NCBI RefSeq assembly: GCF_000025685.1
Contig: NC_013967.1
Coordinates: forward strand, 330,001-362,000
Reading direction: 5' to 3'
Length of the DNA: 32,000 nucleotides
From: Haloferax volcanii DS2
Lineage (GTDB): Archaea > Halobacteriota > Halobacteria > Halobacteriales > Haloferacaceae
In this document: in pieces, positions 1-12,243 of the stretch
How positions within the stretch are numbered: the stretch's first letter is position 1
Layout of the letters: each line of letters starts with the position of its first letter
Program-made: the position numbers and the translations under genes
The notes under the pieces: generated by a model
What the model saw: the letters and a program-made list of their open reading frames with translations, nothing else
What the model was told of the DNA's origin: nothing
The model's database searches: none

Positions 1-2
1 AC

Positions 3-458
3 GGCAAGGAGCGCGGTACTCGTGTCGGCGGGTGCGACTGCAAGGGCTTCGAGTTCCGCGACGACGAGGACTCGCCGTGCGCCCATCTGTGCGTCCTGCG
101 GAAAGCCGAGTGGTCACACAACCACTTCGGAGACGCCGCCGGGCGCGATGTCACCGACGACCCCATCACCGCCCACGACACCGCCGAGCACGTCGCACCG
201 AACGCAACCGAACCCGAGCCCGACCTCGTCGCCGACGGTGGTGAGGATTTCCCGCGCCAGAACTGCCGTCGCTGCGGTGCCGTCTCGCCCGACGGAGAGG
301 CCCCCCCGCCCGCCGAGTGCTCCGAGGGAACGACCGACGACCCTGAGCACGAGTGGACTGACGCGCCCGACCTCGTCGCCGACGGTGGCGACATCGTCGA
401 GGCACCGACCACCGGACACGACGGGCGCGTCTTCGGCCGCCCGGAGGACCAGCTATGA
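3..458 (+). CDS. SWIM zinc-finger domain protein, C-terminal part (5' end outside window)
   Basis: Frame 3 is open from the window edge to TGA 456-458. It is absent from the ORF track because it has no in-window start. The translation GKERGTRVGGCDCKGFEFRDDEDSPCAHLCVLRKAEW shows the CxC...CxH SWIM pattern. It is acidic with GC-rich third positions, unlike the P/T/S/R-rich listed ORFs 22..543 and 32..244 in the other frames. Confidence 0.7.
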   Translation, partial: GKERGTRVGGCDCKGFEFRDDEDSPCAHLCVLRKAEWSHNHFGDAAGRDVTDDPITAHDTAEHVAPNATEPEPDLVADGGEDFPRQNCRRCGAVSPDGEAPPPAECSEGTTDDPEHEWTDAPDLVADGGDIVEAPTTGHDGRVFGRPEDQL

Positions 459-642
459 CCTGCATCACCTACTCCCGAGCACCAGCACCACGAGCCGACC
501 AGCCCCGGCGCTCGCGCGGGCGCGCACACCCCCGCGCGAATAGGCCTCCTCGTACGACCACGGGGGGGCGTACTGCCATACTCCGTATCCCCGCCCCGTC
601 TGCGTATTACGAGTGTGACACGCTGCAGTACAGAGGTGCCCT

Positions 643-1095
643 ATGAGCCGAATGAAGACCGAGCGGACCGAGAGCACGACGGTGACCGTCCGCGTCGACG
701 AGGACCTGAAGGAAGACTACACCAGCGCTCTCGACGGGTCGATAAGCGACGACATCCGGTCCCACATGGAGGAGGTCGCGCGGACCGTTCGAGATGAGTC
801 CGACAACAACCTCCCTGACGATGAGATTCTGCGAGACGGCTACCTCGCGCTCCGACGGACTGCCGAGGCGTACGACCCGAACGGTCGTCGCATCGACGTG
901 ACGACTGCTATCTCGAAGGTCGCCGAGCGAGCAGGAATCCCGAAAGACGCCGTCCGCCGTCGCGTCCTGAAGCCCCTCATCCGAGACGACTACGTCGAGT
1001 TGGACTGGGGGGAAATCATCATCTACCAGCCGGAGGAGGTCAACGCGAGCGCGAATCGGGCCTCCCCGACGAAGGGAAAGAGTACGAGTAGCTAA
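643..1095 (+). CDS. Ribbon-helix-helix domain DNA-binding protein
   Basis: 150 aa acidic ORF. The N-terminus TVTVRVDEDLKEDYTSAL...IRSHMEEV fits an RHH (CopG/Arc-like) beta-strand plus helices. The C-terminal half is helical and may be wHTH-like. Confidence 0.65.
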   Translation: MSRMKTERTESTTVTVRVDEDLKEDYTSALDGSISDDIRSHMEEVARTVRDESDNNLPDDEILRDGYLALRRTAEAYDPNGRRIDVTTAISKVAERAGIPKDAVRRRVLKPLIRDDYVELDWGEIIIYQPEEVNASANRASPTKGKSTSS

Positions 1096-1232
1096 GAAGA
1101 GTCGTCGTCGGTCTTTTTTTGCTGTCCGAACCGCCGCTGTATCTGCGCCTTCAGCACTCCCGAAATCGCCGAGAGTGGGAGCGCCGCGACCGCGAGGAGT
1201 TCCAGCGGACTGAGTGTGACACTACCGTCCAT
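1092..1232 (-). CDS. Small membrane protein (46 aa), last gene of the minus-strand chain
   Basis: Not in the track (under 60 aa). ATG at 1232-1230 overlaps the upstream stop by 11 nt (ATGGACGGTAG). Translation: MDGSVTLSPLELLAVAALPLSAISGVLKAQIQRRFGQQKKTDDDSS, with one hydrophobic helix. Its stop overlaps the convergent stop of 643..1095 by 4 nt. Confidence 0.4.
   Translation of the reverse strand: MDGSVTLSPLELLAVAALPLSAISGVLKAQIQRRFGQQKKTDDDSS
1114..1120 (+). terminator. Oligo-T run (T7) downstream of the 643..1095 stop
   Basis: tcttttttt lies 19 nt after the TAA. Archaeal terminators are commonly oligo-T tracts. The run sits inside the putative opposite-strand ORF 1092..1232 (codons caa aaa aag). 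Confidence 0.35.
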
Positions 1233-1422
1233 CGTCGTCCTCCTCGACGCCGCCGTCGGTAGCTACCGCCCAGTCCTCGACCCGCCGCACGCGCCCACGA
1301 ATGATGCGCAAGTCCTCATGGAGGTCTTGCCGGACCCAGAGAACCAGCGCGGCGACGCCGAGGAGGAGCAGCGCCGTCACCGGGTCGGTCGTCTGCAAGA
1401 TGAGGTCGGTTAGCTCACTCAT
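1222..1422 (-). CDS. Small membrane protein (66 aa)
   Basis: Internal ATG of listed ORF 1222..1503, forming an ATGAGTGA overlap with the stop of the upstream gene. MSELTDLILQTTDPVTALLLLGVAALVLWV is an N-terminal TM helix, followed by an acidic tail. Confidence 0.55.
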   Translation of the reverse strand: MSELTDLILQTTDPVTALLLLGVAALVLWVRQDLHEDLRIIRGRVRRVEDWAVATDGGVEEDDDGR

Positions 1423-1810
1423 CGCCGACCACTCCCGCGATGATTTCGAGCAGCGGACGGAGCAGATACAGGAGCACAAGCCCGACGACGACCGCGACGA
1501 CAATCCACACCTTCGCGGCGAGTCCTGTCCCGCGCGTCGGGTTCGACGCCTGCCCGTCCTGCGGGTCCTCTATCCACGGCGTCCCGCCCGGACCAGCGGT
1601 GTTCCCGGCTTCGTCATCGAACAGCGAGACGAGCCCGCCGACGCCCTCATCGAAGTTGAGCGCGGCGGCGTCCGCTGCGCCCGCGACCGTATCGTACGGG
1701 TCGCGGACGGCCTGACCGGGGTCGCTGACGAAATCGTCGATGCCGCCGAGCCAGTTGTTGGAGCCGTCCCCGAAGGTACCGGTTCCGTTCGTGTCGGGCA
1801 CGTCAGCCAC
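1415..1810 (-). CDS. Acidic tail-anchored protein (131 aa)
   Basis: GTG at 1810 gives a GTGGCTGA start/stop overlap with the upstream gene. The part of listed ORF 1415..1975 upstream of it is R-rich and overlaps the neighbouring gene. The D/G-rich body ends in the TM helix VWIVVAVVVGLVLLYLL. Confidence 0.55.
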   Translation of the reverse strand: MADVPDTNGTGTFGDGSNNWLGGIDDFVSDPGQAVRDPYDTVAGAADAAALNFDEGVGGLVSLFDDEAGNTAGPGGTPWIEDPQDGQASNPTRGTGLAAKVWIVVAVVVGLVLLYLLRPLLEIIAGVVGDE

Positions 1811-2225
1811 CTCCGAAGACGACTGCGCCGATGGCGACCGCGGCGGCCACCCCGAGCGCGATGAAGTTGCGACGTGACCCATCGCCATCGAGGAGCCATC
1901 CGACGCCCGGCGCGTTCTCGGTCGAGTCGTCGGTGTCCGCCGACGGGCTCGACGAGCCGCCCGGCGACGACCCACCGCCGACCGAGGTCTCGCCGTCGTC
2001 GCTCTCGCTCGTCGAGGCGAGCGACGAGTCGATGTCGAAGTAGGTCGACGCGAACGGGTCGCCGTCCATCAGGACCTGCTGGCGGAGGCGACCATCACCG
2101 AGGAGGTGGATGCGGTCGGCGAAGGTGTCGCCGCCGTGCTCGCGGACGGTCGCAAGCACGGCCGGGTCGGACGGGTCCCACTCCTCGGAGTTATCGACCC
2201 AGTCGAGTCCGAGCGGACCGCTCAC
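1803..2225 (-). CDS. Acidic tail-anchored protein (140 aa)
   Basis: GTG start overlaps the upstream stop (GTGA). Acidic composition with an S/G/D low-complexity linker and a C-terminal TM helix NFIALGVAAAVAIGAVVF. Confidence 0.7.
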   Translation of the reverse strand: MSGPLGLDWVDNSEEWDPSDPAVLATVREHGGDTFADRIHLLGDGRLRQQVLMDGDPFASTYFDIDSSLASTSESDDGETSVGGGSSPGGSSSPSADTDDSTENAPGVGWLLDGDGSRRNFIALGVAAAVAIGAVVFGGG

Positions 2226-2788
2226 TTGTCGTCACCTCCCGCGAGGACCGCCGCGCCGATGGCGACGACAACCGCGACGCCAGCCGCGCCAGCCGCGAGA
2301 AGCCCGCCGCTCGACGAGTCGCCGGTCGACTCGCCCATCCCGGTGAGACTTTCGCGGAGGTTGCGAAGTTGCTCCTCCAGAGCGGTGATTTCACCGACTT
2401 GCGGCGTCTCGCTCGACCCGCCGCCGACGATGTTGCGGACCTCGTCGACGACATCCTCGACGCTCTCGTAGCCGCCGCTCAGTCGGTCCTCGTCGATGCT
2501 CACCGATCCGTCGGGGTTGACCGTGACCTCGTCGCCGTCGCTGTTTTCGTTCGGATCGGGGGAGACGGCGTCGTTCGCCGGGTCACCTCCGCCCGGCATC
2601 CCGCTCTCAGAGTTGCCGGGGTCGAGGCCGTCGTCATCGCCGATGGAGCCGTACCCGCCAGTCCCGCCGTCGTCGTCGAGGTAGTCGCCGGTGTCGATGG
2701 TGTTGTCGTCATCATCGTCGGAGTTGCCCGGGATGGACTCGCTGCCTCCGGGGACTCCACCACCGGACTCGTCTGGGTCGATTATCAT
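2222..2788 (-). CDS. Hyperacidic tail-anchored protein with short coiled-coil (188 aa)
   Basis: ATG at 2788 shares one base with the upstream TGA (TGATG). D/G-rich N-terminal half, heptad-like ITALEEQLRNLRESL, and a C-terminal TM helix LLAAGAAGVAVVVAIGAAVLA. Confidence 0.75.
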   Translation of the reverse strand: MIIDPDESGGGVPGGSESIPGNSDDDDDNTIDTGDYLDDDGGTGGYGSIGDDDGLDPGNSESGMPGGGDPANDAVSPDPNENSDGDEVTVNPDGSVSIDEDRLSGGYESVEDVVDEVRNIVGGGSSETPQVGEITALEEQLRNLRESLTGMGESTGDSSSGGLLAAGAAGVAVVVAIGAAVLAGGDDK

Positions 2789-2943
2789 CAATCATCGACC
2801 TCCGTGGTTGTGAGTGTCACGTCTCCATCATCTCCAACCGTCATCTCGATGACTGTCAGATGCTCCGATTCGTCTCCAAACTCGAAGCGGTAAGTCTCTC
2901 CTTCCTCGGCACTCCGTGGTCCGGGAAAATCGGGAATCTCCAT
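2788..2943 (-). CDS. Small acidic protein (51 aa)
   Basis: Not in the track. ATG at 2943 forms a TAATG overlap with the stop of 2943..3431. Translation: MEIPDFPGPRSAEEGETYRFEFGDESEHLTVIEMTVGDDGDVTLTTTEVDD. It fills the gap between neighbours exactly. Confidence 0.5.
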   Translation of the reverse strand: MEIPDFPGPRSAEEGETYRFEFGDESEHLTVIEMTVGDDGDVTLTTTEVDD

Positions 2944-3431
2944 TAGTAGCTGACCTCCTCGAAGACGAATTTGATTTCCCGGTGTCCTGTCTGGTCCGCA
3001 GTCAGATTGTTACCGTTGTAGGTGATGCGGATGCTTTTTGACTCCGTTGCTTTGAGGTTCGTGAGCGCATTCAGCGACGCCGCAGTATCTTGCGGAGCCG
3101 CCGAGTTGACACTCCACGTCGAGTTCCGCCAGTAGACGGCATCGTCGTCCGGGCCGCCTCCGTTCATCATCCGAACGTGGCCCGCGCTCCACACGTAGAA
3201 GAAATGGTCTCCAGAGCCGTCTCCTCCGGGGTTTGGAGCTTCGAGCTCCATCCCGATGACCTTCCAGACCTTGCCCTCTGGAGCGTAGATGTTGGTCGTC
3301 TGCTTCGAACCAGCCGCGACGGTCGCGGTCTGGCCGAACGACTTGGTGACGATGGTTGGTCGGTTGTTCACGGCGAGTGTCTCGCCGCTCCCTTTTGTTC
3401 CGGACTGTCCCCACGGTGCACGACCGGGCAT
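2943..3431 (-). CDS. Beta-rich protein, structural (capsid-like) candidate (162 aa)
   Basis: Clean acidic/polar ORF with alternating-pattern strands (KVWKVIGMELEA, HFFYVWSAGHVRMM, SIRITYNGNNL, EIKFVFEEVSY) and no TM helix. Its start shares one base with the upstream stop. Confidence 0.8.
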   Translation of the reverse strand: MPGRAPWGQSGTKGSGETLAVNNRPTIVTKSFGQTATVAAGSKQTTNIYAPEGKVWKVIGMELEAPNPGGDGSGDHFFYVWSAGHVRMMNGGGPDDDAVYWRNSTWSVNSAAPQDTAASLNALTNLKATESKSIRITYNGNNLTADQTGHREIKFVFEEVSY

Positions 3432-3871
3432 CAGAACACCCCCCCGATGACGCGCCGAATCCCACCGAGGTAATCGACGGTCGGGAGCGCGCGGAAGCGG
3501 TAGGCGTAGTCGGTGCTCTTGTTGTCGGTGATGATGACGATACGGTCACCCTTGCGCATCTCCGCGTTGACGTGGTAGCGGTCGCCGTCGGGCTCACCGG
3601 TCACGAACTGCTCGCCGCCGCCGTAGCTCGGAATGTCGGTATCCTCGGCAGACTCCGGGTTGTCCGGGTCACCCCGGATGCGCCGAATCACTGGTCGCAA
3701 CTGCAGGGCGTCCTCCGACCCGGGGACCGCCCACAGCGACAGCTGCTCGACGGTGCAGTCGGCGGGCGCGACCCACGCGACCTCGTGGCCGGTAGTGTCG
3801 GCCGGGACCTCGTCTTGGATGTGCGGCGTCTCGCGGCGCTCGTCGGTCGTGAGCTTCGATAAAATTCCCAT
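3431..3871 (-). CDS. Beta-rich protein, structural candidate (146 aa)
   Basis: ORF with GC-rich third positions and strand-like segments (HEVAWVAPADCTVEQLSLWAV, DRIVIITDN, YAYRFRALPTVDY). No TM helix and no recognised catalytic motif. Confidence 0.8.
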   Translation of the reverse strand: MGILSKLTTDERRETPHIQDEVPADTTGHEVAWVAPADCTVEQLSLWAVPGSEDALQLRPVIRRIRGDPDNPESAEDTDIPSYGGGEQFVTGEPDGDRYHVNAEMRKGDRIVIITDNKSTDYAYRFRALPTVDYLGGIRRVIGGVF

Positions 3872-3881
3872 GGTGGGACCT

Positions 3882-4388
3882 CTACAGCGAACTCCGGTAC
3901 AGCATCACGTCGCTGTTAGCCGGGTCGATTTCCTTTCCGTCGCTGTTCGAGTCGGCGTCGATGCGGAACTCGATGTGCCGACCCGCCGTCGCGTACGGAG
4001 CGAGCGAGTACATCAGCGGGCGCTCGGTGGGCGACTCGCTGGCATACTCTGCGAGCAGTTCGAGGTCACCGAGCTTGCGCGTGAACATCGCACGGCCGTC
4101 GGAGTCGGTGATGGCCGCGTAGAGCGTGCCGCTGATGGTGTCGCCCTCGGTGCCCGACCCGTTGCCCGTGGCGACGATGTCCGCGTGCATGGGCGAGGAG
4201 TCCGCGCTTTCGCGGTCCTTCCCGCCCGCTCCGAACCAGAGGTCCTTGTCCTGCGGGACCTTCTCGCGGTAGACCGTGACCTCCGCGCCGGCCTTGACCG
4301 TGTCCTGGTCGAGGTCGCTGCCGCGGATGGGTCGCACGTCGCCGTCGAGTTCGGCGAGGTCTTCGTTGTAGCTGAGTGTTCCCGGCAT
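3882..4388 (-). CDS. Beta-rich protein, structural candidate (168 aa)
   Basis: ORF with strand-like segments (AEVTVYREKV, TISGTLYAAITD, RHIEFRIDAD, DVMLYRSSL) and no TM helix. It starts 4 nt after the upstream stop. Confidence 0.8.
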   Translation of the reverse strand: MPGTLSYNEDLAELDGDVRPIRGSDLDQDTVKAGAEVTVYREKVPQDKDLWFGAGGKDRESADSSPMHADIVATGNGSGTEGDTISGTLYAAITDSDGRAMFTRKLGDLELLAEYASESPTERPLMYSLAPYATAGRHIEFRIDADSNSDGKEIDPANSDVMLYRSSL

Positions 4389-4391
4389 CGG

Positions 4392-4589
4392 TTAGACCCC
4401 CGGAATGTTCACGTCATCATCGGTGACGCCGGCCTTCTGCCGTGCGGTGTTGTACAGATACGCTCCTGCTCCGACGACGGCCATCGTGAGGGTGACGCCG
4501 ATAACCCCGAGACCGAGGTTCTGTGCGGATTCACCGGGGTCGTCAGTATCGACCTCGATGCCGAGTAGTTCAAGTGGTACTTTCGTCAT
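4392..4589 (-). CDS. Small membrane protein (65 aa), first gene of the minus-strand chain
   Basis: Single TM helix LGLGVIGVTLTMAVVGAGAYLY. A TATA-like CTTTTTCA (plus-strand 4614-4621) lies about 25-32 nt upstream of the ATG, as expected for a leaderless haloarchaeal mRNA. Confidence 0.7.
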   Translation of the reverse strand: MTKVPLELLGIEVDTDDPGESAQNLGLGVIGVTLTMAVVGAGAYLYNTARQKAGVTDDDVNIPGV

Positions 4590-4640
4590 TCCATTTCCGA
4601 CAACGAGCGATTGTGAAAAAGTTCGAAGTGTAGTGGAATA

Positions 4641-4665
4641 CGCTCAACAATTCAATTATTGAGCG
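4641..4665. promoter_or_regulatory. Palindromic operator candidate between divergent promoters
   Basis: cgctcaa-caattcaatta-ttgagcg has 7-bp perfect arms and contains the inner palindrome tcaat-t-attga (4652-4662). It sits between TATA-like elements at 4614-4621 (minus operon) and 4679-4687 (plus operon). The same 11-mer recurs at 9798-9808. Confidence 0.55.
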
Positions 4666-4718
4666 TCGTACAGCACTCGTTATTTTACATTCACGGTCGA
4701 CTGACTGTTCGACACAGT

Positions 4719-4901
4719 ATGATTGGCTACCCGACACTAGTTCTCGGCACGCTCGTGGCCTATCTCCGGGCTTCGGACGAGACGAGACCATTCGTGAAAG
4801 GAGCGTTCGGAATCGGCATCCTCGGCGAGTGTGGCGCACTCAGCGGTGCAGTACACTTCACTCAGTCGGGCGTCTCGATGCTCGGAGGGCTCATCGCATG
4901 A
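4719..4901 (+). CDS. Small membrane protein (60 aa)
   Basis: Internal ATG of listed ORF 4659..4901. Two hydrophobic segments (YPTLVLGTLVAYL, AFGIGILGECGALSGAV). Its stop overlaps the next start (ATGA). Confidence 0.5.
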   Translation: MIGYPTLVLGTLVAYLRASDETRPFVKGAFGIGILGECGALSGAVHFTQSGVSMLGGLIA

Positions 4902-5359
4902 ACGGCAGTAAAGAGCCTCAGAACCCCACGGACCAGCAATGCGAGCATTGCGGGCTGTTCTACGCGGCGCAGGGAATCCACAACCACCGGCCGGGGTGCC
5001 CGCTTCGAGACTGGGACACGATGATTCAGCCCCTCGACGGCGCTGGTGAGCCAGCCGGCGAGCGCGGTTCAGTCCCCGATAGTGACCCGGCGAACCCGCC
5101 CGAATCGGGGGACATCGAAGTGTCGGACACTCAGAAGGCGATGACCGACGGCGGAAACCCCATCCACGGCGCGCCTGAGCCCGTCACGGACGGCGGCAAG
5201 GACACTGAGGAGGTCGACGGGTGTCCCGACTGCGGGTCGGACGACTACGTCGACGCCGACGCTGTTCTGCGCGCTCGCAACCCGTCCGCGAAGAACACGG
5301 CGGTCCTGACCCAGTACGACCGCGTCTGCATCGAGTGCGGGGAGGCGTACGATGCCTGA
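4898..5359 (+). CDS. Zinc-ribbon protein (153 aa)
   Basis: Start MNGSKEPQ at ATG 4898. Has CEHCG...H...C near the N-terminus and CPDCG...CIECG at the C-terminus, with an acidic linker between them. Confidence 0.75.
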   Translation: MNGSKEPQNPTDQQCEHCGLFYAAQGIHNHRPGCPLRDWDTMIQPLDGAGEPAGERGSVPDSDPANPPESGDIEVSDTQKAMTDGGNPIHGAPEPVTDGGKDTEEVDGCPDCGSDDYVDADAVLRARNPSAKNTAVLTQYDRVCIECGEAYDA

Positions 5360-5792
5360 GGACGGCGAGACACCGTCCCCACCGTCGCCGGGCGACACGT
5401 TCGTCCGTGACGCCGGCGTCCCGAACATGGGCGCTACGGCGAACCACGCGGCTGCTGAGGGTGCGCCCGCGGAGGAGTCGGTGGGGTCGTCGTCGACGCT
5501 CCGCGACATGGTGCTCTCGACAGAACCGAAGCGGTCGCTCGACGAAATCGAATCGCCGTGGGCTCCGGAGCGCGGCGGCCCGAAGCGGGTCTTCCGCGGG
5601 TTCCAGAAGATGGGCGACATCGACGGGATGCCCGCCGGCTTCGACGTAGTCGTCGGGCTCGCCGAGACGGCCGTCCTGATTCTCGACCACGTCGAGGAGC
5701 AGAACGACGGCGACCAGAGCGACGACGCGGGTCAGAACGACGAGGACCTCGACGACGACCTCGCGCCGCTCGCGGGTGTCGGAGGTGCGTGA
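5352..5792 (+). CDS. Acidic hypothetical protein (146 aa)
   Basis: Its start overlaps the upstream stop (ATGCCTGA). One hydrophobic stretch (FDVVVGLAETAVLILD) and a D/E/Q-rich tail. Confidence 0.7.
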   Translation: MPEDGETPSPPSPGDTFVRDAGVPNMGATANHAAAEGAPAEESVGSSSTLRDMVLSTEPKRSLDEIESPWAPERGGPKRVFRGFQKMGDIDGMPAGFDVVVGLAETAVLILDHVEEQNDGDQSDDAGQNDEDLDDDLAPLAGVGGA

Positions 5793-5794
5793 CG

Positions 5795-6409
5795 ATGCAG
5801 GCGTACCACACGGTCGTCACCGGCGACTCCGGCGGCGGGAAGACGACCCTGCTGCGCGAGATGCAAGCCGAGTTCCCCGGTCTGAGTATCTGGGTCAACT
5901 TCACCAACACCGACGGCATCACCGGGCGCGACCTCGACGACGCCGCGACGGTCCGGTCGGTCGGCGAAGCTCGCGCGTCGGACGCGACGCGACTGAACTG
6001 GGTGACCGACTCCCCGCTCGAAACGGCGCGGCAGGCGCGGACGGTCGCCCACGAGTATCACGAGGCGACGGGCTTCCCGACGCAGGTCATCTTCGACGAG
6101 GCGCAGAACGTCCTTCCCGACGGCGAGGTCGAGTCGGACAACCCGGTGAAGCGGATGCTCCACGAGGACCGCGACAAGGGGCTGAAGGTCGTTATCGCCA
6201 CGCAGGACCCCTCGGACCTCGATTACACGCCCATCAAGCAATGCAAGTTCTGGGTGTGGGTCGGTGAGTGGGCCGTGTTCCACGACGGCTTTCTGCGGTA
6301 CTTCTCGATACCGCGCGACGACCTCCCGACCGAGCCGTACCAGTACGTCGTCTTCGACAAGCGGATGAACGTGCTGCACCGCGCGGAGACGCAGGAGGCG
6401 TACGCATGA
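5795..6409 (+). CDS. P-loop NTPase, FtsK/HerA- or A32-like packaging ATPase candidate (204 aa)
   Basis: Walker A is VVTGDSGGGKTT and Walker B is QVIFDEAQ. These are followed by KVVIATQDPSDLDYTPIKQCKFWVWV, which resembles the hhhh-S/T-Q...P..hR.N motif of small viral packaging ATPases. The start is ATG 5795, or GTG 5789 overlapping the upstream stop. Confidence 0.85.
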   Translation: MQAYHTVVTGDSGGGKTTLLREMQAEFPGLSIWVNFTNTDGITGRDLDDAATVRSVGEARASDATRLNWVTDSPLETARQARTVAHEYHEATGFPTQVIFDEAQNVLPDGEVESDNPVKRMLHEDRDKGLKVVIATQDPSDLDYTPIKQCKFWVWVGEWAVFHDGFLRYFSIPRDDLPTEPYQYVVFDKRMNVLHRAETQEAYA

Positions 6410-6630
6410 ACACGCACTTCCGATTCGGCGGGACGCGGGTGTATCTCCAGCCGGTCGAGGACGACGAGACCGATGTCGTTGACGCGCTTCGGACGCTCGC
6501 GGAGTGGCTATCGGAGGACGTCGTCTCGTGGTGGACCTACGACGTGCCGCCAGAGTCGCAGATACAGGACCCCCTGACGACCGACGCGAAGAAGGCACTC
6601 GTCATCTCGTGGGGTGAGTCGCGTGAGTGA
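6406..6630 (+). CDS. Hypothetical protein (74 aa)
   Basis: ATGA overlap with the ATPase stop. Acidic composition; translation begins MNTHFRFGGTRVYLQPVEDDETDVVDALRTLAEW. Confidence 0.65.
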   Translation: MNTHFRFGGTRVYLQPVEDDETDVVDALRTLAEWLSEDVVSWWTYDVPPESQIQDPLTTDAKKALVISWGESRE

Positions 6631-6769
6631 CGACCTCCTCCTTCCACCGCCTGAGCCACCCAGTCCGTCGAGTCGATTGTTCGGCGTCGTCGGAGAGTTG
6701 GTCGGCCTCGCGGCCGCGGTCTACGTCGCGGCGCGCGCGGCTCGTCGAGGATGGAGGGACGGCCGGTGA
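6623..6769 (+). CDS. Small membrane protein (48 aa)
   Basis: Not in the track. GTG 6623 overlaps the upstream stop by 8 nt. Translation: MSDDLLLPPPEPPSPSSRLFGVVGELVGLAAAVYVAARAARRGWRDGR, with one TM helix. Confidence 0.45.
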   Translation: MSDDLLLPPPEPPSPSSRLFGVVGELVGLAAAVYVAARAARRGWRDGR

Positions 6770-6912
6770 CTGCCCCCGTCGTTCCGGCTGACATCGCGTT
6801 TCTCGCGGTCTCAGTCGCGACGACCTTCTCGTTCGTGGCCGGGTTCCTCGGTGGACTGAACGCAGGGATGTCGCTCTACCGACCGATGGTCGACACAGTT
6901 CTCGACCTATGA
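6766..6912 (+). CDS. Small membrane protein (48 aa)
   Basis: Not in the track. GTGA start/stop overlap. Translation: VTAPVVPADIAFLAVSVATTFSFVAGFLGGLNAGMSLYRPMVDTVLDL, which is hydrophobic. Confidence 0.45.
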   Translation: MTAPVVPADIAFLAVSVATTFSFVAGFLGGLNAGMSLYRPMVDTVLDL

Positions 6913-7088
6913 CTTGCACACGACCGCGGCCGACGTGCTACGAGTGCGGGCGTCGTCAATGTGTCCGCTGTGGGCGTTGTTACGAGAACCACATTCAGTT
7001 CGAGCACTACTCCGTTACTCACTCGAAGCGGTGTCCGTCGTACTTGTGCCGTCTTATCAAGCGACTCCGGCCCGCCACGTACTATTGA
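6909..7088 (+). CDS. Cys-rich zinc-finger mini-protein (59 aa)
   Basis: Not in the track. ATGA overlap with the upstream stop. Translation: MTCTRPRPTCYECGRRQCVRCGRCYENHIQFEHYSVTHSKRCPSYLCRLIKRLRPATYY, with CxxC-x4-CxxC plus further C/H residues. The listed ORFs 6914..7192 and 6961..7158 are in other frames. Confidence 0.5.
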   Translation: MTCTRPRPTCYECGRRQCVRCGRCYENHIQFEHYSVTHSKRCPSYLCRLIKRLRPATYY

Positions 7089-7198
7089 CTCTCCGAAAAC
7101 ACCTGAGAGTCGGAAAGAATCGACTCGATTTCAGTCTTCGACACGGGGAAAAGACTAGGATACTGGCGCTATTCTTCCGAGATGTGAGGTAACCGGAA

Positions 7199-7783
7199 AT
7201 GAAGATGCAGGACTACGAGAGCAAGGACGGGAAGAAGGTGTGGCTCAGTCGGAGCGAGGTTGATACACTCCTCGACGTCGCCGACGGGACTGAGCAGCGA
7301 GTCGCGTTCGCCCTCGGTGCGCGATGTGGGCTCCGTGTCGCGGAGGTCGTGGAAGTCACGCCCGACGACGTAGTCGACACGGAGGTCGGGAAGTTCCTCC
7401 GGGTGTGGGAGGGGAAGGGTTCGAAGTACCGAGAGACGCCCATCCCGACTGACCTCGCGGCGACGATCGCGGCGGTCGGCGACTATCGCGACGAGTCGAG
7501 CGATACACCCGTCGTCGACCGGACGACTCGAACCGTACGGAACTGGGTCACCAAGGCTGGCGACCAGCTGGTCGAGGAGACCGAGGACGTTGGCTGGTCG
7601 TTCCTCGGCCCGCACGACCTCCGACGGACGTGGGGGACGCTACTGGTCGGTGCGGAGGTCGAGCCCGGACTGGTGATGGAGTGGGGCGGTTGGGAGGACT
7701 GGGAGACGTTCAGAGAACACTACCTCGGTGCATACAGTCTCGAAGCACAGGCGCGTGGGATGGGCAAAATCGAGTGGTTGTGA
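7199..7783 (+). CDS. Short tyrosine recombinase / integrase (catalytic domain only, 194 aa)
   Basis: The catalytic signature is readable: GLRVAEV (Arg), GKGSKYRETPIP (Lys hairpin), HDLRRTW (H-x-x-R), GGWEDWETF (Trp) and REHYLG (Tyr). Confidence 0.85.
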   Translation: MKMQDYESKDGKKVWLSRSEVDTLLDVADGTEQRVAFALGARCGLRVAEVVEVTPDDVVDTEVGKFLRVWEGKGSKYRETPIPTDLAATIAAVGDYRDESSDTPVVDRTTRTVRNWVTKAGDQLVEETEDVGWSFLGPHDLRRTWGTLLVGAEVEPGLVMEWGGWEDWETFREHYLGAYSLEAQARGMGKIEWL

Positions 7784-7798
7784 GATAGCGCCGTACGG

Positions 7799-8116
7799 CT
7801 ATGCGTCAGCCACCTGCTGCTGTATCTTTACTACTATAAATCTCAATGCTCCGAACGTAACTAATAGCGATACTACGATCACGGAATCACTACTTCCTGG
7901 TATTGCTGACCTCCAGAATCCTGCCACCGTGAATACACAAAGGATGGCGGATTTGAGAATTATATTTAGATCATCTGCGATTATCTGAACAGTCTCGGAT
8001 TGGGACTTAAAGAACATATAGCCGAGTATGATGAGAGTGACACCAGCAATAGCTGCGACCCCCGTATTATCTGTACTTGCTATCGCTGATATTGCTTCGG
8101 CAAAATCAATCTGCAT
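7799..8116 (-). CDS. Membrane protein (105 aa), AT-rich island
   Basis: About three hydrophobic helices (GVAAIAGVTLIILGYMFF, ILCVFTVAGFW, VIVVSLLVTFGALRFIVV). Its start overlaps the upstream stop by 11 nt (ATGCAGATTGA). Confidence 0.65.
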   Translation of the reverse strand: MQIDFAEAISAIASTDNTGVAAIAGVTLIILGYMFFKSQSETVQIIADDLNIILKSAILCVFTVAGFWRSAIPGSSDSVIVVSLLVTFGALRFIVVKIQQQVADA

Positions 8117-8621
8117 AGTGTAGTGCCGTCACTATCAGAATAGCCGCCCCAGCTAAAGCGATAAGAATACTCTGGAGATAGAATGCGAGCATGAACGTCA
8201 CTATACCCAGAGCGTACAGAGTCGCTACTGGGTGGTCCAGTAACGCGATATCTAGCACTCTAGAGAGTGACGATTGAGCAGTCATGTCTACCTCCTCTGT
8301 GTCTGTAACAAGGTCGTGTGGCTGTATATTCTCTCCGATTACCCCAAGTTGTTGCTCACTAAATGATTTAGCGACCTCTGAGTAGAAGTCTGGATTCTGC
8401 ACTTTAGACAAACCAGAGTCCAAAGGATTTACTGCATGAAACAGAACTTCTTCCTTAGCGAGCCTTTCTGAGATCTCTGCGGCAGACATCTCGATTATTT
8501 GCTGCTTGGCTTCTGGAGGGAGATCCTCCCACTCCAACTCGTCTTGTTGGACGCGGAAATTTCCGGATGGTGTATTTCCGAGGCCGCCCTCATCGACCTG
8601 TGGTCCTCCGTTATGAGTCAT
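8106..8621 (-). CDS. Protein with soluble acidic N-domain and two C-terminal TM helices (171 aa), AT-rich island
   Basis: Start chosen at MTHNGGPQ (ATG 8621), which overlaps the upstream stop by 11 nt (ATGACTCATAA). The C-terminus is VATLYALGIVTFMLAFYLQSILIALAGAAILIVTAL. Confidence 0.6.
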   Translation of the reverse strand: MTHNGGPQVDEGGLGNTPSGNFRVQQDELEWEDLPPEAKQQIIEMSAAEISERLAKEEVLFHAVNPLDSGLSKVQNPDFYSEVAKSFSEQQLGVIGENIQPHDLVTDTEEVDMTAQSSLSRVLDIALLDHPVATLYALGIVTFMLAFYLQSILIALAGAAILIVTALHYAD

Positions 8622-9210
8622 CCTTGTGCCCTTCTGACGAAAGTTGGTATAGTTGACGGAGCGATTCATTTTCGTTCACTCTCAGAACTTGGCTGTGTTT
8701 TGCATTCTCTGAGCCGTCGTCGTCCCGGAAACGGAGTCGGTCAACATCATCTGTCGATGGTTGAATCTCTATCTGCATGATTCCATCAACACTCGGGGAA
8801 GGCAAATCGAATTGATATGTGTGACTCTCTCCAGGGACGATCTCTAGTGGTTCGTATTCCGCTGTACTGCTTAACCTCGCGCCGCCAGCAATGTGTTGTG
8901 TCTGTTCTACTCTGTTGAATCCCACCTCAATCGGGTGGTCCCCAGTATACTCAAAAAGGATCTCATAATACCATGGCAAGCCTTCGATTATGTCGCTTCC
9001 AGAAGCTAAATTGACAAAATCAGAAACCGGCTTGAATTTCTCCCAAGTGAGGTCGGTCCCTTTGAGATCTTCCTCAGATATCTCTCGCGCATCTTTCTCT
9101 GCGAAACTTGATGGGACTGTCCCGTATTCAATTCCAAACTCTCCCGGGATGTCTGCCGCATCTCTTATTCGAGGCCCAGCCCGCTTGCCTGTGATCTCTA
9201 AGTATTCCAT
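8611..9210 (-). CDS. Hypothetical soluble protein (199 aa), AT-rich island
   Basis: Unambiguous ORF in low-GC DNA. The C-terminal half has beta-sandwich-like alternation (PIEVGFNRVEQ, EPLEIVPGESHTYQFDL, GIMQIEIQP). No motif recognised. Confidence 0.7.
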   Translation of the reverse strand: MEYLEITGKRAGPRIRDAADIPGEFGIEYGTVPSSFAEKDAREISEEDLKGTDLTWEKFKPVSDFVNLASGSDIIEGLPWYYEILFEYTGDHPIEVGFNRVEQTQHIAGGARLSSTAEYEPLEIVPGESHTYQFDLPSPSVDGIMQIEIQPSTDDVDRLRFRDDDGSENAKHSQVLRVNENESLRQLYQLSSEGHKDDS

Positions 9211-9219
9211 CGTTCTAGT

Positions 9220-9306
9220 TTAGCTGTCGCCAATCTCACGCTTCTGCCGGTCAACTTCCTTTCTGACTGTCGCCTCAATAAGGTCTAGCCGTTCATTCGC
9301 TACCAT
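9220..9306 (-). CDS. Possible 28-aa helical peptide
   Basis: Not in the track. ATG 9306-9304 overlaps the stop of 9300..9581. Translation: MVANERLDLIEATVRKEVDRQKREIGDS. It ends 9 nt before the next gene and fills an otherwise unexplained gap. Confidence 0.3.
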   Translation of the reverse strand: MVANERLDLIEATVRKEVDRQKREIGDS

Positions 9307-9581
9307 GGAGGCGCAGGTCGATTCGCTTCTTCGATCACTTCCATCTGTTCAACGAACCCACTACTCCGCCAGTCTGACCTCGGTTCAGAGTATTTCCCGA
9401 TTTTGTAAATCGGACCAGACTCCTCAACAGAAAACGCCACATCGTCTATTTCCCACCGCGTCCCGTTTCTGTCTTCCAGAGTATCTCCAACCCAGAATTT
9501 GCATGACCGAGATAGCTCCTTCTTCAGGCGGTTTGAGTGCTCCCAGTTAAATTGTCTCACGTATCCTACACCTACGTTCAA
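9300..9581 (-). CDS. Hypothetical protein (93 aa), downstream partner of the RHH gene
   Basis: 4-nt start/stop overlap with the RHH gene. Rich in W/K/R/E; translation begins MNVGVGYVRQFNWEHSNRLKKELSRSCKFWVGDTLEDRNGTRWEIDD. No known toxin motif recognised. Confidence 0.65.
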   Translation of the reverse strand: MNVGVGYVRQFNWEHSNRLKKELSRSCKFWVGDTLEDRNGTRWEIDDVAFSVEESGPIYKIGKYSEPRSDWRSSGFVEQMEVIEEANRPAPPW

Positions 9582-9793
9582 TCCTCGTCTTCTTCGCTGG
9601 CAAGCAGAGACGGGTCCTCAATCGCCATCTTCATCAAACGGCGAATTGCCTCGCTTCGAGACATATCCATGGGTAGCTCCCCGTTTAACTGACCTCTCTT
9701 TATCGCGCGGTCGAAGTCTTCGACGAAGTCGTCGCCCACTTTGAGAGAAATGTTCCGGGAACCGCTTCCGTCCGTATCGTAGGCGGTGCTCAT
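9578..9793 (-). CDS. Ribbon-helix-helix (CopG-like) protein (71 aa)
   Basis: RNISLKVGDDFVEDFDRAI...SRSEAIRRLMKMAI fits the strand-helix-helix pattern. First gene of the AT-rich operon. Palindromic sites lie directly upstream. Confidence 0.75.
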   Translation of the reverse strand: MSTAYDTDGSGSRNISLKVGDDFVEDFDRAIKRGQLNGELPMDMSRSEAIRRLMKMAIEDPSLLASEEDED

Positions 9794-9795
9794 AC

Positions 9796-9822
9796 AATCA
9801 ATTATTGATTCAATGATTGAAT
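9796..9822. promoter_or_regulatory. Two adjacent palindromic operator candidates (TCAAT-N-ATTGA x2)
   Basis: aatcaat-t-attgatt (9796-9810) is a perfect 15-bp palindrome. attcaa-tga-ttgaat (9808-9822) has 6-bp perfect arms around a 3-nt spacer and overlaps the first by 3 nt. They start 3 nt upstream of the RHH ATG (9793), over the expected TATA position. The core is identical to 4652-4662. Confidence 0.6.
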
Positions 9823-9875
9823 ACCTTGGGAAGATACTACCTCGTTGATGTGGTCGCTTAGGGAGTAAGTAATAA

Positions 9876-9887
9876 GTAACTCGTTAC
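9876..9887. promoter_or_regulatory. Short palindrome gtaac-tc-gttac next to TATA-like gtaataag upstream of 9904
   Basis: The TATA-like element at 9869-9876 lies about 30 nt upstream of ATG 9904. The palindrome lies between the TATA element and the start. Confidence 0.3.
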
Positions 9888-9903
9888 AATACTACCAAGC
9901 GCA

Positions 9904-10089
9904 ATGGAAGTCTCAGTAAACGTGAGCATCTCCATGCCGCCGGAGATGCTAGAGAAAATCGACGAAAACGCCCGAGCTCACGGGAAATCGCGTGCGGCGT
10001 ACGTCCGTCACCTCATCCAGCAGGCACCGGACTCACCGTTCGAGACGCCCGAACTCCAACTGACCGACGAACCGCCCGCAGAAGCATGA
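9904..10089 (+). CDS. CopG/RHH family transcriptional regulator (61 aa)
   Basis: VSISMPPEMLEKIDENARAHGKSRAAYVRHLI is a typical RHH signature. The gene is divergent from the other RHH gene. Confidence 0.8.
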   Translation: MEVSVNVSISMPPEMLEKIDENARAHGKSRAAYVRHLIQQAPDSPFETPELQLTDEPPAEA

Positions 10090-10198
10090 ACAGGGGACCG
10101 TCCAAAGCGCCTGCCAGCAACCCGGAGGTCCCCGATTCGGAGCAGTCGCGCGCGGCACGTAAGTCCAGCGTTGCGTACTGCGTCGAGGTGTTCTGACC

Positions 10199-10432
10199 GT
10201 GAGTGACGATTCGTTCGACGTGAAGCTCGTCGTCACCCGCGGCACCGGGTCGCAGGACAAGGAGAAGATGCAGGTCGAGGTCTCGGCCGACTCGCTCGAA
10301 GAACTCGACGAGAAGGTGAACGGTGCCCGCGAGCGACTGCGCGAGTGGGCTGACGACATCCGCACCATCCAGCCGGACGGTCGCCGTCGACACGACGACG
10401 CCCAGACGGAACTCGGAGGTGCCAGCGCGTGA
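10199..10432 (+). CDS. Hypothetical acidic protein (77 aa)
   Basis: Clean acidic ORF; translation begins MSDDSFDVKLVVTRGTGSQDKEKMQVEVSADSLEELDEKV. Its stop overlaps the next start. Confidence 0.7.
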   Translation: MSDDSFDVKLVVTRGTGSQDKEKMQVEVSADSLEELDEKVNGARERLREWADDIRTIQPDGRRRHDDAQTELGGASA

Positions 10433-10620
10433 GCGCCCAGACGAACCTCGGGACGTTTACCGCCGGACTCTCGCCCGCGGAGACCGACGCCTATCTCGCC
10501 GTCGACGAGGGCGACGAGACGCCGACCGAGTTCGCACGCCGGACCGGACGTGACCCGTCGACTGTGCGGACGCTCCTGTACCGCGCTCGGCGCAAGCTCG
10601 ACAAGCGGGGTGGAGCGTGA
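10429..10620 (+). CDS. Small HTH protein (sigma-70 region-4-like helix-turn-helix, 63 aa)
   Basis: TPTEFARRTGRDPSTVRTLLYRARRKL resembles the region-4/LuxR-type HTH pattern (xxEiAxxxGxSxxTVxxxLxRARxKL). Confidence 0.65.
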   Translation: MSAQTNLGTFTAGLSPAETDAYLAVDEGDETPTEFARRTGRDPSTVRTLLYRARRKLDKRGGA

Positions 10621-10787
10621 CCGACCTCGAAATCATCGCTCAAATCGGTGAAGCGTGGGATTCAGAAACCGCCAGAGAGGTCAACAACAACCTCGACGAC
10701 GACGACCTCGGCATCATCCACGACATCAGCCGTAGCGGCGCGCACTACCTCGTTCGGTGGCCTGACGAAACGGAGGGAGACGAGTGA
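10617..10787 (+). CDS. Small acidic protein (56 aa)
   Basis: Not in the track. GTGA overlaps at both ends. Translation: MTDLEIIAQIGEAWDSETAREVNNNLDDDDLGIIHDISRSGAHYLVRWPDETEGDE. The listed R-rich ORF 10648..11928 is an off-frame artefact. Confidence 0.5.
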   Translation: MTDLEIIAQIGEAWDSETAREVNNNLDDDDLGIIHDISRSGAHYLVRWPDETEGDE

Positions 10788-11785
10788 CCGACCTCGAACC
10801 GCTCTCCCCCGAGGAGGGCGTCACGCGCTTCCTGCGTCACCGCGAACCGAGCGTCCGCGACTCGACCCTGCAGAACTCGCGCACTCGGCTGAACCACTTC
10901 CTCGACTGGTGCGAGGAGGTCGGCATCGAGAACCTGAACGACCTGTCCGGCCGCGACCTCGCCGACTTCGTCGCGTGGCGCCGAGGCGACATCGCGCCCA
11001 TCACGCTCCAGAAGCAACTGAGCACCGTGCGGGCGGCGCTCGGTTTCTGGGCCGACATCGAGGGCGTCGAGGACGGCCTTCGCGAGCGCGTTCACGCGCC
11101 GGAGCTTCCCGACGGTGCCGAGGCGCGCGACGTCCACCTGTCGGCGGACCGCGCCGAATCGATTCTCGACTACCTCGACCGCTACCAGTACGCCAGCCGC
11201 GAGCACGTCATCATGGCGTTGCTCTGGCGAACCGGAATGCGTCGGGGTGCGCTTCGGGCGCTCGATGTCGGCGACCTGCACGCCGACGACCACGCCGTCG
11301 AGTTGGTCCATCGGCCGGAGACCGATACCGCTCTGAAGAACGGCACGAAGGGCGAGCGGTGGGTCTACCTCGGTCCCGAGTGGTTCGAGGTCGTCGACGA
11401 GTACGCCGCGACGAACCGGCACGATGTCGTCGACGACCACGGCCGCCGCCCGCTGATAACGTCGAAGTACGGCCGTCCGACCGGCGATACCATCTACAAG
11501 TGGGTCGGGAAGCTGACGCGCCCCTGCGAGTACGGCGACTGTCCGCACGACCGCGAGCGAGCGACGTGCGACGCGGTCGGGTCAGACGGCTATCCGAGTC
11601 GGTGCCCGTCGTCGCGGTCGCCCCACGCCGTTCGTCGAGGACACATCACGGCCTACCTGAACCGCGAGGTCTCGCCGGAGACGATTTCGGAGCGGTCGGA
11701 CGTGTCGCTCGACATCCTGTACCAGCACTACGACGCGCGGACCCCGCGCGAGAAGATGAACGTTCGAATCCAGAACCTGCCATGA
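10784..11785 (+). CDS. Tyrosine recombinase / phage-type integrase (333 aa)
   Basis: N-terminal SAM-like core-binding region (VRDSTLQNSRTRLNHFLDWCE). Catalytic motifs: TGMRRGA (Arg), HAVRRGH (H-x-x-R) and ILYQHYD (Tyr). A Cys/His-rich insert CEYGDCPHDRERATCDAVGSDGYPSRCP precedes the HxxR. Confidence 0.9.
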   Translation: MTDLEPLSPEEGVTRFLRHREPSVRDSTLQNSRTRLNHFLDWCEEVGIENLNDLSGRDLADFVAWRRGDIAPITLQKQLSTVRAALGFWADIEGVEDGLRERVHAPELPDGAEARDVHLSADRAESILDYLDRYQYASREHVIMALLWRTGMRRGALRALDVGDLHADDHAVELVHRPETDTALKNGTKGERWVYLGPEWFEVVDEYAATNRHDVVDDHGRRPLITSKYGRPTGDTIYKWVGKLTRPCEYGDCPHDRERATCDAVGSDGYPSRCPSSRSPHAVRRGHITAYLNREVSPETISERSDVSLDILYQHYDARTPREKMNVRIQNLP

Positions 11786-11832
11786 GTCACAACACTACCT
11801 GCCAGCCGCACAGCCCCGTGCGATTCCCGACC

Positions 11833-11925
11833 GGGACCTTCCCCGCGAGTCCACTACCATTTTCGCGACGCAACTCAGCGAGTCGTGACTCCGCGAGGAG
11901 TCCGACGAGTACCTCCTGCGTCGCG
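11833..11925. repeat. Direct repeat copy 1 (about 90 bp)
   Basis: gggaccttccccgcgagtccactaccattttcgcgacgcaac...gagtcgtgactcc...ctgcgtcgcg is repeated at 12154-12243, by eye about 80-85 percent identical. It contains a 9-bp inverted repeat cgcgacgca/tgcgtcgcg enclosing smaller hairpins. Confidence 0.75.
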
Positions 11926-11944: not shown

Positions 11945-12022
11945 GCGGGGATTTGAATCAGGGAACGAGAGGTGAGCGAGCAGCGCGAGCGAACGGGAGT
12001 GACCGTGGTTCAATATCCCCGC
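11945..12022. repeat. Imperfect inverted repeat (about 15-bp arms) with T-loop-like sequence
   Basis: gcggggatttgaatc (11945-11959) pairs with ggttcaatatccccgc (12007-12022). The arms resemble a tRNA T-loop/3' end (TTCAAATCCCCGC), but no cloverleaf can be folded. Confidence 0.55.
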
Positions 12023-12121
12023 GAGTCCATTTCCTTCCGTCACTTCGTTCCGTCAGTCACTGGACTCGCTTGCCCCCACTCGCTTCGTCTGCGAGCGACC
12101 CGTGAGTCGCCCGCATGGCCA

Positions 12122-12153: not shown

Positions 12154-12243
12154 GGGGACCCCGCAAGTCCACTACCATTTTCGCGACGCAACACGACGAG
12201 TCGTGACTCCGTCAGGAGCCCTGCGAGTATCAACTGCGTCGCG
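12154..12243. repeat. Direct repeat copy 2 (about 90 bp)
   Basis: ggggaccccgcaagtccactaccattttcgcgacgcaac...gagtcgtgactcc...ctgcgtcgcg. See copy 1. The outer 9-bp inverted repeat is conserved. Confidence 0.75.

Follow-up and report, generated by a model that had tools for sequence, protein, structure and literature searches.

Candidate capsid proteins in the structural operon of Halfvol2, a provirus of Haloferax volcanii DS2

The window analyzed here is a 32,000-nucleotide (nt) stretch of the Haloferax volcanii DS2 chromosome (NC_013967.1, positions 330,001 to 362,000; positions below are those of the window unless stated otherwise). Window positions 1-11853 represent almost the whole of Halfvol2, a 12,275-bp circular double-stranded DNA (dsDNA) element that the literature classes as a 'novel group' and that is one of four proviruses carried by H. 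volcanii; the assignment follows from an att copy (a perfect 14-nt tRNA-Ala 3' end, TCCCCGCGAGTCCA) at 11840-11853 (+), which marks the right end of the element and coincides, at an offset of exactly 330,000, with the published one (CP001956 nt 341,853; PMC7911831). Excision and circularization of Halfvol2, and its presence in cell-free stocks and CsCl bands, are documented (PMC7911831, PMC12091111). The capsid genes of this active provirus were never identified, and the 2025 study that deleted Halfvol2 found no capsid protein by BLASTp and Foldseek (E<1e-3; PMC12091111). Here, two small proteins of the structural operon, A (HVO_0372) and B (probably HVO_0371), emerge as the best candidates for the capsid proteins of Halfvol2, and we put their having this role at about an even chance. 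The product of the next gene, C (probably HVO_0370), appears better explained as a variable, exchangeable third structural component.

Structural genes, packaging ATPase and conserved gene order

Proteins A, B, and C were singled out in a first-pass annotation, made from the nucleotide sequence alone, as three tandem beta-rich products that lack transmembrane (TM) helices and might be single-jelly-roll capsid proteins. The three open reading frames (ORFs) are present exactly as described there, all on the minus strand (Table 1), and are indeed alike in size and directly adjacent: 10 nt separate A from B, B and C share a single base (TGATG), C overlaps its following gene in TAATG, and A starts 3 nt past the stop of a gene for a 65-amino acid (aa) protein. 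As had been claimed, A, B, and C have no hydrophobic segment that reaches the TM threshold. All three are real genes and not chance GC-rich ORFs, because GC content at third codon positions (0.89, 0.87, and 0.74 for A, B, and C) exceeds that of the overlapping alternative frames (0.56-0.71), homologs exist (11, 11, and 3, respectively, in a word-indexed search), and the substitutions that separate DS2 from Haloferax (Hfx.) marisrubri in these genes include many synonymous codon changes. The three families have no match in Pfam, PHROG, NCBIfam, or PADLOC, and searches of PDB sequences (with single sequences and profiles, including a 47-sequence profile of A) and of GenBank phages found nothing.

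The structural operon opens with the 65-aa one-TM protein, which is 100% and 78% identical to its counterparts in two related loci (L011 and L012, respectively), and which is the positional counterpart of SH1 VP12, SNJ1 VP6, and P23-77 VP15, each of which has a TM segment. Downstream of C, the operon encodes four one-TM proteins that are candidate virion membrane proteins. A and B are its only conserved soluble proteins, and none of its ORFs has the length that a double-jelly-roll capsid protein would need.

A divergent operon faces these genes and encodes, after a zinc-finger protein and a 146-aa protein, the packaging-type ATPase HVO_0377, which matches phrog_2666 (E=4.3e-11, profile positions 320-480). 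The same family is matched by the reference ATPases SH1 ORF17 (3e-76), SNJ1 gp23 (1.7e-25), and P23-77 ORF13 (2e-38), and also by PM2 P9 (2.6e-50) and PRD1 P9 (1.1e-64); by this match, HVO_0377 is a PRD1 P9-type packaging ATPase of the FtsK/HerA superfamily, the type of the tailless icosahedral membrane-containing dsDNA viruses (Varidnaviria/Singelaviria assemblage), and the small ATPase noted beside A and B in the first-pass annotation is thereby placed in a packaging family common to PRD1, PM2, SH1, SNJ1, and P23-77. Foldseek similarity of HVO_0377 to the packaging ATPases PH1 gp13 and STIV2 B204 has been published (PMC12091111), and a tblastn search of phages with the ATPase found nothing. 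Among the ATPases of related elements, 5 of 10 match phrog_2666, and all have a P-loop. The divergent orientation of the ATPase gene had been taken for a variant of the sphaerolipovirus theme; however, SH1 has the same arrangement, so the supposed variant is the alphasphaerolipovirus layout.

In five Halfvol2-like ATPases, the Walker A loop is interrupted by five additional residues (GITGSxxxMGGKT); these five fall below the PHROG threshold, and relatives with a canonical loop match phrog_2666.

Related loci were retrieved from the genomes of Hfx. marisrubri, Hfx. mucosum, Halomarina oriensis, and Halobacterium sp. KA-4, and from a 12-kb Halopelagius contig, six metagenomic contigs, and a circular Halobacterium litoreum plasmid (NZ_CP089467.1). 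At least 13 Halfvol2-like elements of 8-12.7 kb, integrated or episomal, are thus known from Haloferax, Halobacterium, Halopelagius, Halomarina, and hypersaline metagenomes. One gene order recurs in 13 elements (~8.3-12.7 kb): a small membrane protein, A, a B-sized protein, and variable genes, facing small ORFs that lead to the ATPase. In each of the 12 related loci, A is immediately preceded by a gene for a ~63-78-aa protein; nine of these products were tested, and eight have a TM segment. By hidden Markov model iteration, A is found in 12 of 12 scanned loci, B beside A in 10, and C in 4, and A and B are also found on the H. litoreum plasmid; A and B, therefore, form a conserved soluble core of the structural operon, to which C does not belong. 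An exhaustive profile search yields 46 representative clusters of the A family, nearly all of 150-185 aa and matched over their full length, many of them on 8-11-kb contigs.

The H. litoreum replicon, deposited as 'plasmid unnamed1' (L020), is a closed 11,599-bp circle on which every gene is labeled hypothetical. It lacks an integrase, but its layout is that of Halfvol2 in full, with the small protein, A, B, and a third gene on one side and a divergent ATPase on the other, and the record probably represents the genome of an episomal virus. SNJ1 (pHH205) was likewise once filed as a plasmid.

Amino acid identity to the Hfx. marisrubri provirus falls along the operon, from 99% for the ATPase to 93% for A, 80% for B, and 44-45% for C; for Hfx. 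mucosum the values are 89% (ATPase), 57% (A), and 24% (B), and C is replaced. This rising divergence suggests modular exchange of the distal structural genes. A and B also change faster than the ATPase: nonsynonymous codons between DS2 and Hfx. marisrubri number 1 in the ATPase gene, 11 in A, and 28 in B. Protein A is a published target of CRISPR spacers in several Haloferax, its relatives being matched by H. volcanii spacer C-14 and an Hfx. denitrificans spacer (PMC4390866); the published position of the C-14 match (genome 333,928-333,984; PMC4390866) corresponds to window 3928-3984, inside A.

Predicted folds of A and B and mosaic variation of C

Structure prediction and comparison were run for A and B, and gave moderately confident models of eight-stranded, jelly-roll-like sandwiches. 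The AlphaFold2 model of A (predicted local distance difference test, pLDDT, 74.1; predicted template modeling score, pTM, 0.73) has eight strands and one short helix, and that of B (pLDDT 75.6, pTM 0.70) has eight strands, both from shallow alignments; the description of the three products as beta-rich is confirmed to this extent, that is, for A and B. In Foldseek searches of the PDB, the model of A matches VP2 of infectious bursal disease virus (IBDV) (E 1.8e-3) and P23-77 VP16 (E 6.9e-3; TM-score 0.48/0.50 over 155 columns), and the TM-score of VP16 to model A is the highest among the matches listed. The matches of B are the GOLD domain, nucleoplasmin, the furin P domain, the coat proteins of potato leafroll virus and satellite tobacco mosaic virus, and IBDV VP2, all at E>=1.9e-3. 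Because the hit lists are topped by eight-stranded jelly rolls, none of them significant or specific, the predicted assignment of A and B to a jelly-roll-like sandwich fold class is reasonably supported, but a specific structural tie of either protein to known capsid proteins is not (all Foldseek matches at E>1e-3). Neither a fold other than a jelly roll, in the models of A and B, nor confident homology to cellular proteins was found, these being the outcomes that the first-pass annotation had named as refuting its proposal.

Paralogy of A, B, and C, which the first-pass annotation had raised, is not supported by hhalign, which gives pairwise probabilities of 0.1-0.9% with the first and the enlarged family alignments alike. 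In the alignment of C with its homologs, residues 1-25 are almost invariant (MPGRAPWGQSGTKGSGETLAVNNRP) and the body is divergent, with an overall identity of 41-45%. The DNA of the DS2 and Hfx. marisrubri proviruses is 91-98% identical except in two blocks, 1848-3358 and 7781-9300; the former begins right after the first 25 codons of C, covers the next three genes, and has no DNA homology to Hfx. marisrubri. The third position is occupied in six other elements by a 109-118-aa protein that is unrelated to C. The combination of an invariant, putatively docking peptide with an exchangeable body, and of replacement elsewhere, suggests that C resembles a vertex or host-recognition component and not a shell protein. 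A set of three capsid genes, as first envisaged, is unlikely, with C confined to a third of the scanned loci and situated in a recombination hot spot.

C is also unusually non-acidic for a haloarchaeal protein, with an isoelectric point (pI) of 6.3 and 9% aspartate plus glutamate, vs. 17-31% for the majority of the other structural-operon genes and 12-31% overall. The alternative third-gene products have a similar start by eye (MG.xQF...G.GGTL), for which hhalign gives no support as homology, and which is reported here as a lead only.

Candidate roles of A, B, and C in a virion

Gene context is stronger evidence for a capsid role of A and B than their fold. From the jelly-roll capsid proposal of the first-pass annotation, A and B are retained as candidates by virtue of their predicted folds, the ATPase, and the gene order, and three paralogous capsid proteins are dropped as unlikely. 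We propose that A, B, and C belong to the virion operon of Halfvol2, which would be a temperate virus, 12.3 kb in size, whose genome is inserted into the H. volcanii DS2 chromosome. A and B would be the two shell-forming capsid proteins, each a single jelly roll, perhaps in the vertical orientation, and, like the capsid proteins of SH1, SNJ1, and P23-77, might form pseudo-hexameric capsomers that cover an internal membrane. The upstream 65-aa protein and the downstream single-pass proteins may sit in this membrane, and the divergently encoded HVO_0377 would pump circular dsDNA into the procapsid. C would be an exchangeable third component, the N-terminal 25 residues of which dock to the particle and the variable body of which faces the host, with a putative role at the vertex, as a penton, or in receptor binding.

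Among known systems, SH1 (Sphaerolipoviridae) resembles Halfvol2 in its haloarchaeal host, its phrog_2666 packaging ATPase, its capsid proteins without TM segments, and its layout, in which one strand carries ORF22 to ORF17 (the ATPase) and the other carries VP12-VP7-VP4, then further structural genes. However, its genome is linear and 31 kb in size, vs. a 12.3-kb integrating circle, and its capsid proteins VP7 and VP4 (185 and 232 aa, vs. 168 and 146 aa for A and B) have no sequence or profile similarity to A or B. Simuloviridae (SNJ1, HJIV1, and NVIV1) are, like Halfvol2, temperate, with small (16-19 kb) circular dsDNA genomes and plasmid-like carriage, comparable to the Halobacterium episome; SNJ1 has the same order of ATPase, VP6 (TM), small capsid protein (158 aa), and large capsid protein. 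They differ in their larger genomes (8-12.7 kb in Halfvol2-like elements), in co-directional ATPase and capsid genes, and in a large capsid protein of ~240 aa. P23-77 (Matshushitaviridae) also has a TM protein, a small capsid protein, and a large capsid protein (VP15-VP16-VP17) after its ATPase; VP16 is a 173-aa single jelly roll, although its match to model A falls short of the usual significance threshold and had no equivalent in the BFVD search. Unlike Halfvol2, P23-77 has a bacterial host (Thermus), and its VP17 has 291 aa with a tower domain. PM2 (Corticoviridae) and PRD1 (Tectiviridae) share with Halfvol2 the phrog_2666 ATPase, small genomes (10-15 kb), and many small membrane proteins, and in both of them small genes separate the ATPase gene from the capsid gene; however, they encode a single double-jelly-roll capsid protein (269-395 aa).

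The gene order of the Halopanivirales module (ATPase, then small membrane protein, small capsid protein, and large capsid protein) is found in the window and in the 12 related loci, with A and B in the places of the two capsid genes. Another feature of the Halopanivirales is a pair of adjacent single-jelly-roll capsid genes, for which A and B are candidates: they are adjacent, and each is modeled with eight strands, with structural matches all at E>1e-3 and none specific to capsid proteins from BFVD. For the A, B, and C families, hmmsearch and hhalign found no capsid homology to recognized members, and B is no counterpart in size of the Halopanivirales 'large' capsid protein (232-291 aa) with its extra tower or insertion; membership of Halfvol2 in the Halopanivirales is not established. 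A preprint has proposed 'Halicoviridae' for DHIV-1, a tailless icosahedral virus of haloarchaea from metagenomic data whose genome is small (13.6 kb), and the capsid proteins of which resemble those of simuloviruses by profile-profile comparison only (bioRxiv 10.1101/2025.02.15.638363); it does not mention Halfvol2 or H. volcanii proviruses, and DHIV-1 was compared here by description only. LSV-48N, a lemon-shaped Haloferax virus (24 kb), shows no link to Halfvol2 in its published text.

Several results weigh against a capsid role for A and B. No Foldseek match of either protein to the PDB reaches E<1e-3, in agreement with the published negative; P23-77 VP17 and SH1 VP4 are not among the top 50 PDB matches of B; and from BFVD, model A draws no sphaerolipovirus capsid protein, only generic jelly-roll, TNF/C1q, and tail-fiber domains. 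Matches of this kind might arise with any small eight-stranded sandwich. Viral capsid profiles, with which the first-pass annotation had called for comparison, likewise leave the A, B, and C families unmatched to known two-jelly-roll capsid proteins: probabilities are <=1% against SH1 VP7/VP4, P23-77 VP16/VP17, and five-genome simulovirus profiles (hmmsearch and hhalign, final profile runs). This negative is informative because, in the same set-up, control families do detect one another, with simulovirus capsid profiles finding SH1 VP7 at 92%, SH1 VP4 at 74%, and P23-77 VP16 at 24%; it is, therefore, counted as real evidence against close membership, and A and B, if capsid proteins of this type, would on these comparisons be more divergent than the recognized archaeal families are from one another. 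Furthermore, B (129-162 aa across its family) is far smaller than the known 'large' capsid proteins, and relatives of A are absent from an IMG/VR scan with the A alignment (69 pattern matches, none confirmed). Capsid proteins are also expected to dominate a virion preparation. The proteins listed in a publication from mass spectrometry of a CsCl band include just two from Halfvol2, HVO_0379A and HVO_0379B, and neither HVO_0372 nor HVO_0371 (PMC12091111). That band was mixed, and the Halfvol2 titer was low. Electron microscopy (EM) of the band shows uniform spherical particles with a core and halo (PMC12091111), which are compatible with the capsid model and no proof of it.

Two weak signals from the profile comparisons were rejected as noise: B to SNJ1 PB7 (8% by hhalign with a single sequence, <1% with the five-sequence simulovirus profile) and C to P23-77 VP17 (7 bits by hmmsearch).

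The small integrase (HVO_0379, 7199-7783) and the regulatory genes flank a cassette of low GC content (48-50%) at 7799-9300, which makes up the second of the two non-homologous blocks and, by gene numbering, should hold HVO_0379A and HVO_0379B. Its three minus-strand ORFs have no match in Pfam, PHROG, NCBIfam, or PADLOC. The cassette occurs in none of the relatives, the proviruses of Hfx. marisrubri and Hfx. mucosum included, and looks like strain-specific cargo (a moron). HVO_0379A and HVO_0379B are unlikely to be the true capsid proteins, given that near-identical proviruses lack the cassette and that two of its three ORFs encode membrane proteins; rather than conserved capsid proteins, they more probably represent cargo that the lysogen expresses and that travels with membranes.

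The strongest alternative, though an unlikely one, is that the Halfvol2 particle is lipid-enveloped and pleomorphic or vesicle-like, with A and B as internal matrix, nucleoid-associated, or accessory proteins, and with the ATPase translocating DNA into a vesicle. Dyall-Smith et al. annotated ten Halfvol2 proteins with TM domains and regarded the particle as 'probably lipid enveloped' (PMC7911831), which agrees with the many single-pass proteins of the operon; a matrix or accessory role would also account for the lack of a significant capsid match of A and B, here as in PMC12091111, and for their omission from the mass spectrometry list. The ATPase family, however, is carried among the viruses tested by tailless icosahedral membrane-containing viruses and not by pleolipoviruses: HRPV-1 VP8 matches phrog_1979 and HRPV-1 ORF7 phrog_5952, and none of 10 scanned Halfvol2 proteins matches either, in a scan that did not extend to the VP4 and VP3 families. 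Nor did the PHROG scan, again without the VP4 family, reveal a pleolipovirus-type spike (signal peptide plus anchor), and the literature gives pleolipovirus status to Halfvol1 and Halfvol3 only. The gene order is that of icosahedral viruses, and the uniformity of the core-and-halo particles speaks further against a pleomorphic virion.

It is improbable that A and B are not virion components and instead are intracellular beta-sandwich proteins of a plasmid-like element, such as nucleoplasmin- or GOLD-type assembly chaperones or anti-defense proteins. The matches of B to GOLD and nucleoplasmin-type chaperones, the annotation of one relative as a plasmid, and a weak VirB4/TrbE/HerA similarity of HVO_0377 would fit such an element, but a coupled operon with membrane proteins that faces a packaging ATPase is kept in 13 elements, the length of A is uniform (150-185 aa), and A is both fast-evolving and CRISPR-targeted. 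Moreover, Halfvol2 DNA is exported, cell-free, filterable, and CsCl-banding (PMC7911831, PMC12091111). Finally, a shell formed jointly by A, B, and C as three paralogous major capsid proteins, each with a single jelly roll, would suit their similar sizes, their tight coupling in one operon, and the eight strands predicted for both A and B, but is highly improbable given pairwise profile probabilities of <1% even with enlarged alignments, the occurrence of C in 4 of 12 loci with an unrelated 109-118-aa family in six, the location of the C body in a recombination-replaced block between proviruses that are otherwise 91-98% identical, and the atypical pI of C.

With A and B as a capsid pair, Halfvol2-like elements may constitute a new lineage, deeply divergent and of family rank, among the tailless icosahedral viruses of archaea that contain a membrane; the shell would use the smallest known single-jelly-roll pair (~168 + 146 aa), and a conserved N-terminal peptide would dock an exchangeable third protein. 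We give this proposal slightly less than an even chance. Naming HVO_0372 and HVO_0371 as this pair, and tying the element to the PRD1/SH1-type packaging-ATPase viruses, provides directly testable targets for knock-out and proteomics. If correct, a minimal two-jelly-roll virus (8-12 kb) would join a lineage that is central to the debate on the origin of double-jelly-roll capsids, and a naturally active member in H. volcanii, the main archaeal genetic model, would offer a tractable host-virus pair for the study of internal-membrane capsid assembly in archaea. The family has apparently been missed by current catalogs, with no A relative found in IMG/VR and one member annotated as a plasmid.

Provirus features and integration site

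Table 1. Features of Halfvol2 in the window, and ATPase genes with a Walker A insertion in related loci (positions of that locus)
Feature	Position	Strand	Description
Protein A, HVO_0372 (by coordinate mapping)	3882..4388	minus	168 aa
Protein B, probably HVO_0371	3431..3871	minus	146 aa
Protein C, probably HVO_0370	2943..3431	minus	162 aa
65-aa one-TM protein, probably HVO_0373	4392..4589	minus	First gene of structural operon; TM segment 25-43
51-aa acidic protein	2788-2943	minus	Downstream part of operon, after C
189-aa protein	2222-2791	minus	Downstream part of operon; one TM segment
140-aa protein	1803-2225	minus	Downstream part of operon; one TM segment
~186-aa protein	1415-1975	minus	Downstream part of operon; one TM segment; start uncertain
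93-aa protein	1222-1503	minus	Downstream part of operon; one TM segment
CPxCG zinc-finger protein HVO_0375	4829-5359	plus	Divergent operon
146-aa protein	5352-5792	plus	Divergent operon
Packaging-type ATPase HVO_0377	about 5786-6409	plus	207 aa; Walker A GDSGGGKT; Pfam AAA_22; phrog_2666
Small tyrosine recombinase HVO_0379	7199..7783	plus	Pfam Phage_integrase 3.9e-16; named in PMC3460438
Low-GC cassette ORFs	7799-9300	minus	105 aa (3 TM segments); 187 aa (2 TM segments, C-terminal); 199 aa (soluble)
Integrase	10784..11785	plus	Pfam Phage_integrase and SAM-like N-terminal domain; named in PMC3460438
Insertion-bearing ATPase, L001	6189-6869
Insertion-bearing ATPase, L003	4930-5586
Insertion-bearing ATPase, L005	5799-6464
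Insertion-bearing ATPase, L019	1171-1833
Insertion-bearing ATPase, L020	3516-4208

A regulatory cluster at 9578-10620 comprises two ribbon-helix-helix proteins encoded face to face (9578-9793 minus, 9904-10089 plus), a DUF7389 protein (10199-10432), and a sigma-70 region-4-like helix-turn-helix protein (10429-10620). It is conserved at 74-100% in Hfx. marisrubri and Hfx. mucosum, and is likely the lysogeny switch.

Beyond the right end of Halfvol2, further copies of TCCCCGCGAGTCCA occur at 12016-12029 (perfect) and 12158-12171 (degenerate), so that all three copies lie downstream of the XerC/D integrase. The first and third copies are each followed by a ~20-nt motif that they have in common (CTACCATTTTCGCGACGCAAC). 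These tRNA-Ala ends suggest leftovers of repeated integrations at that tRNA.

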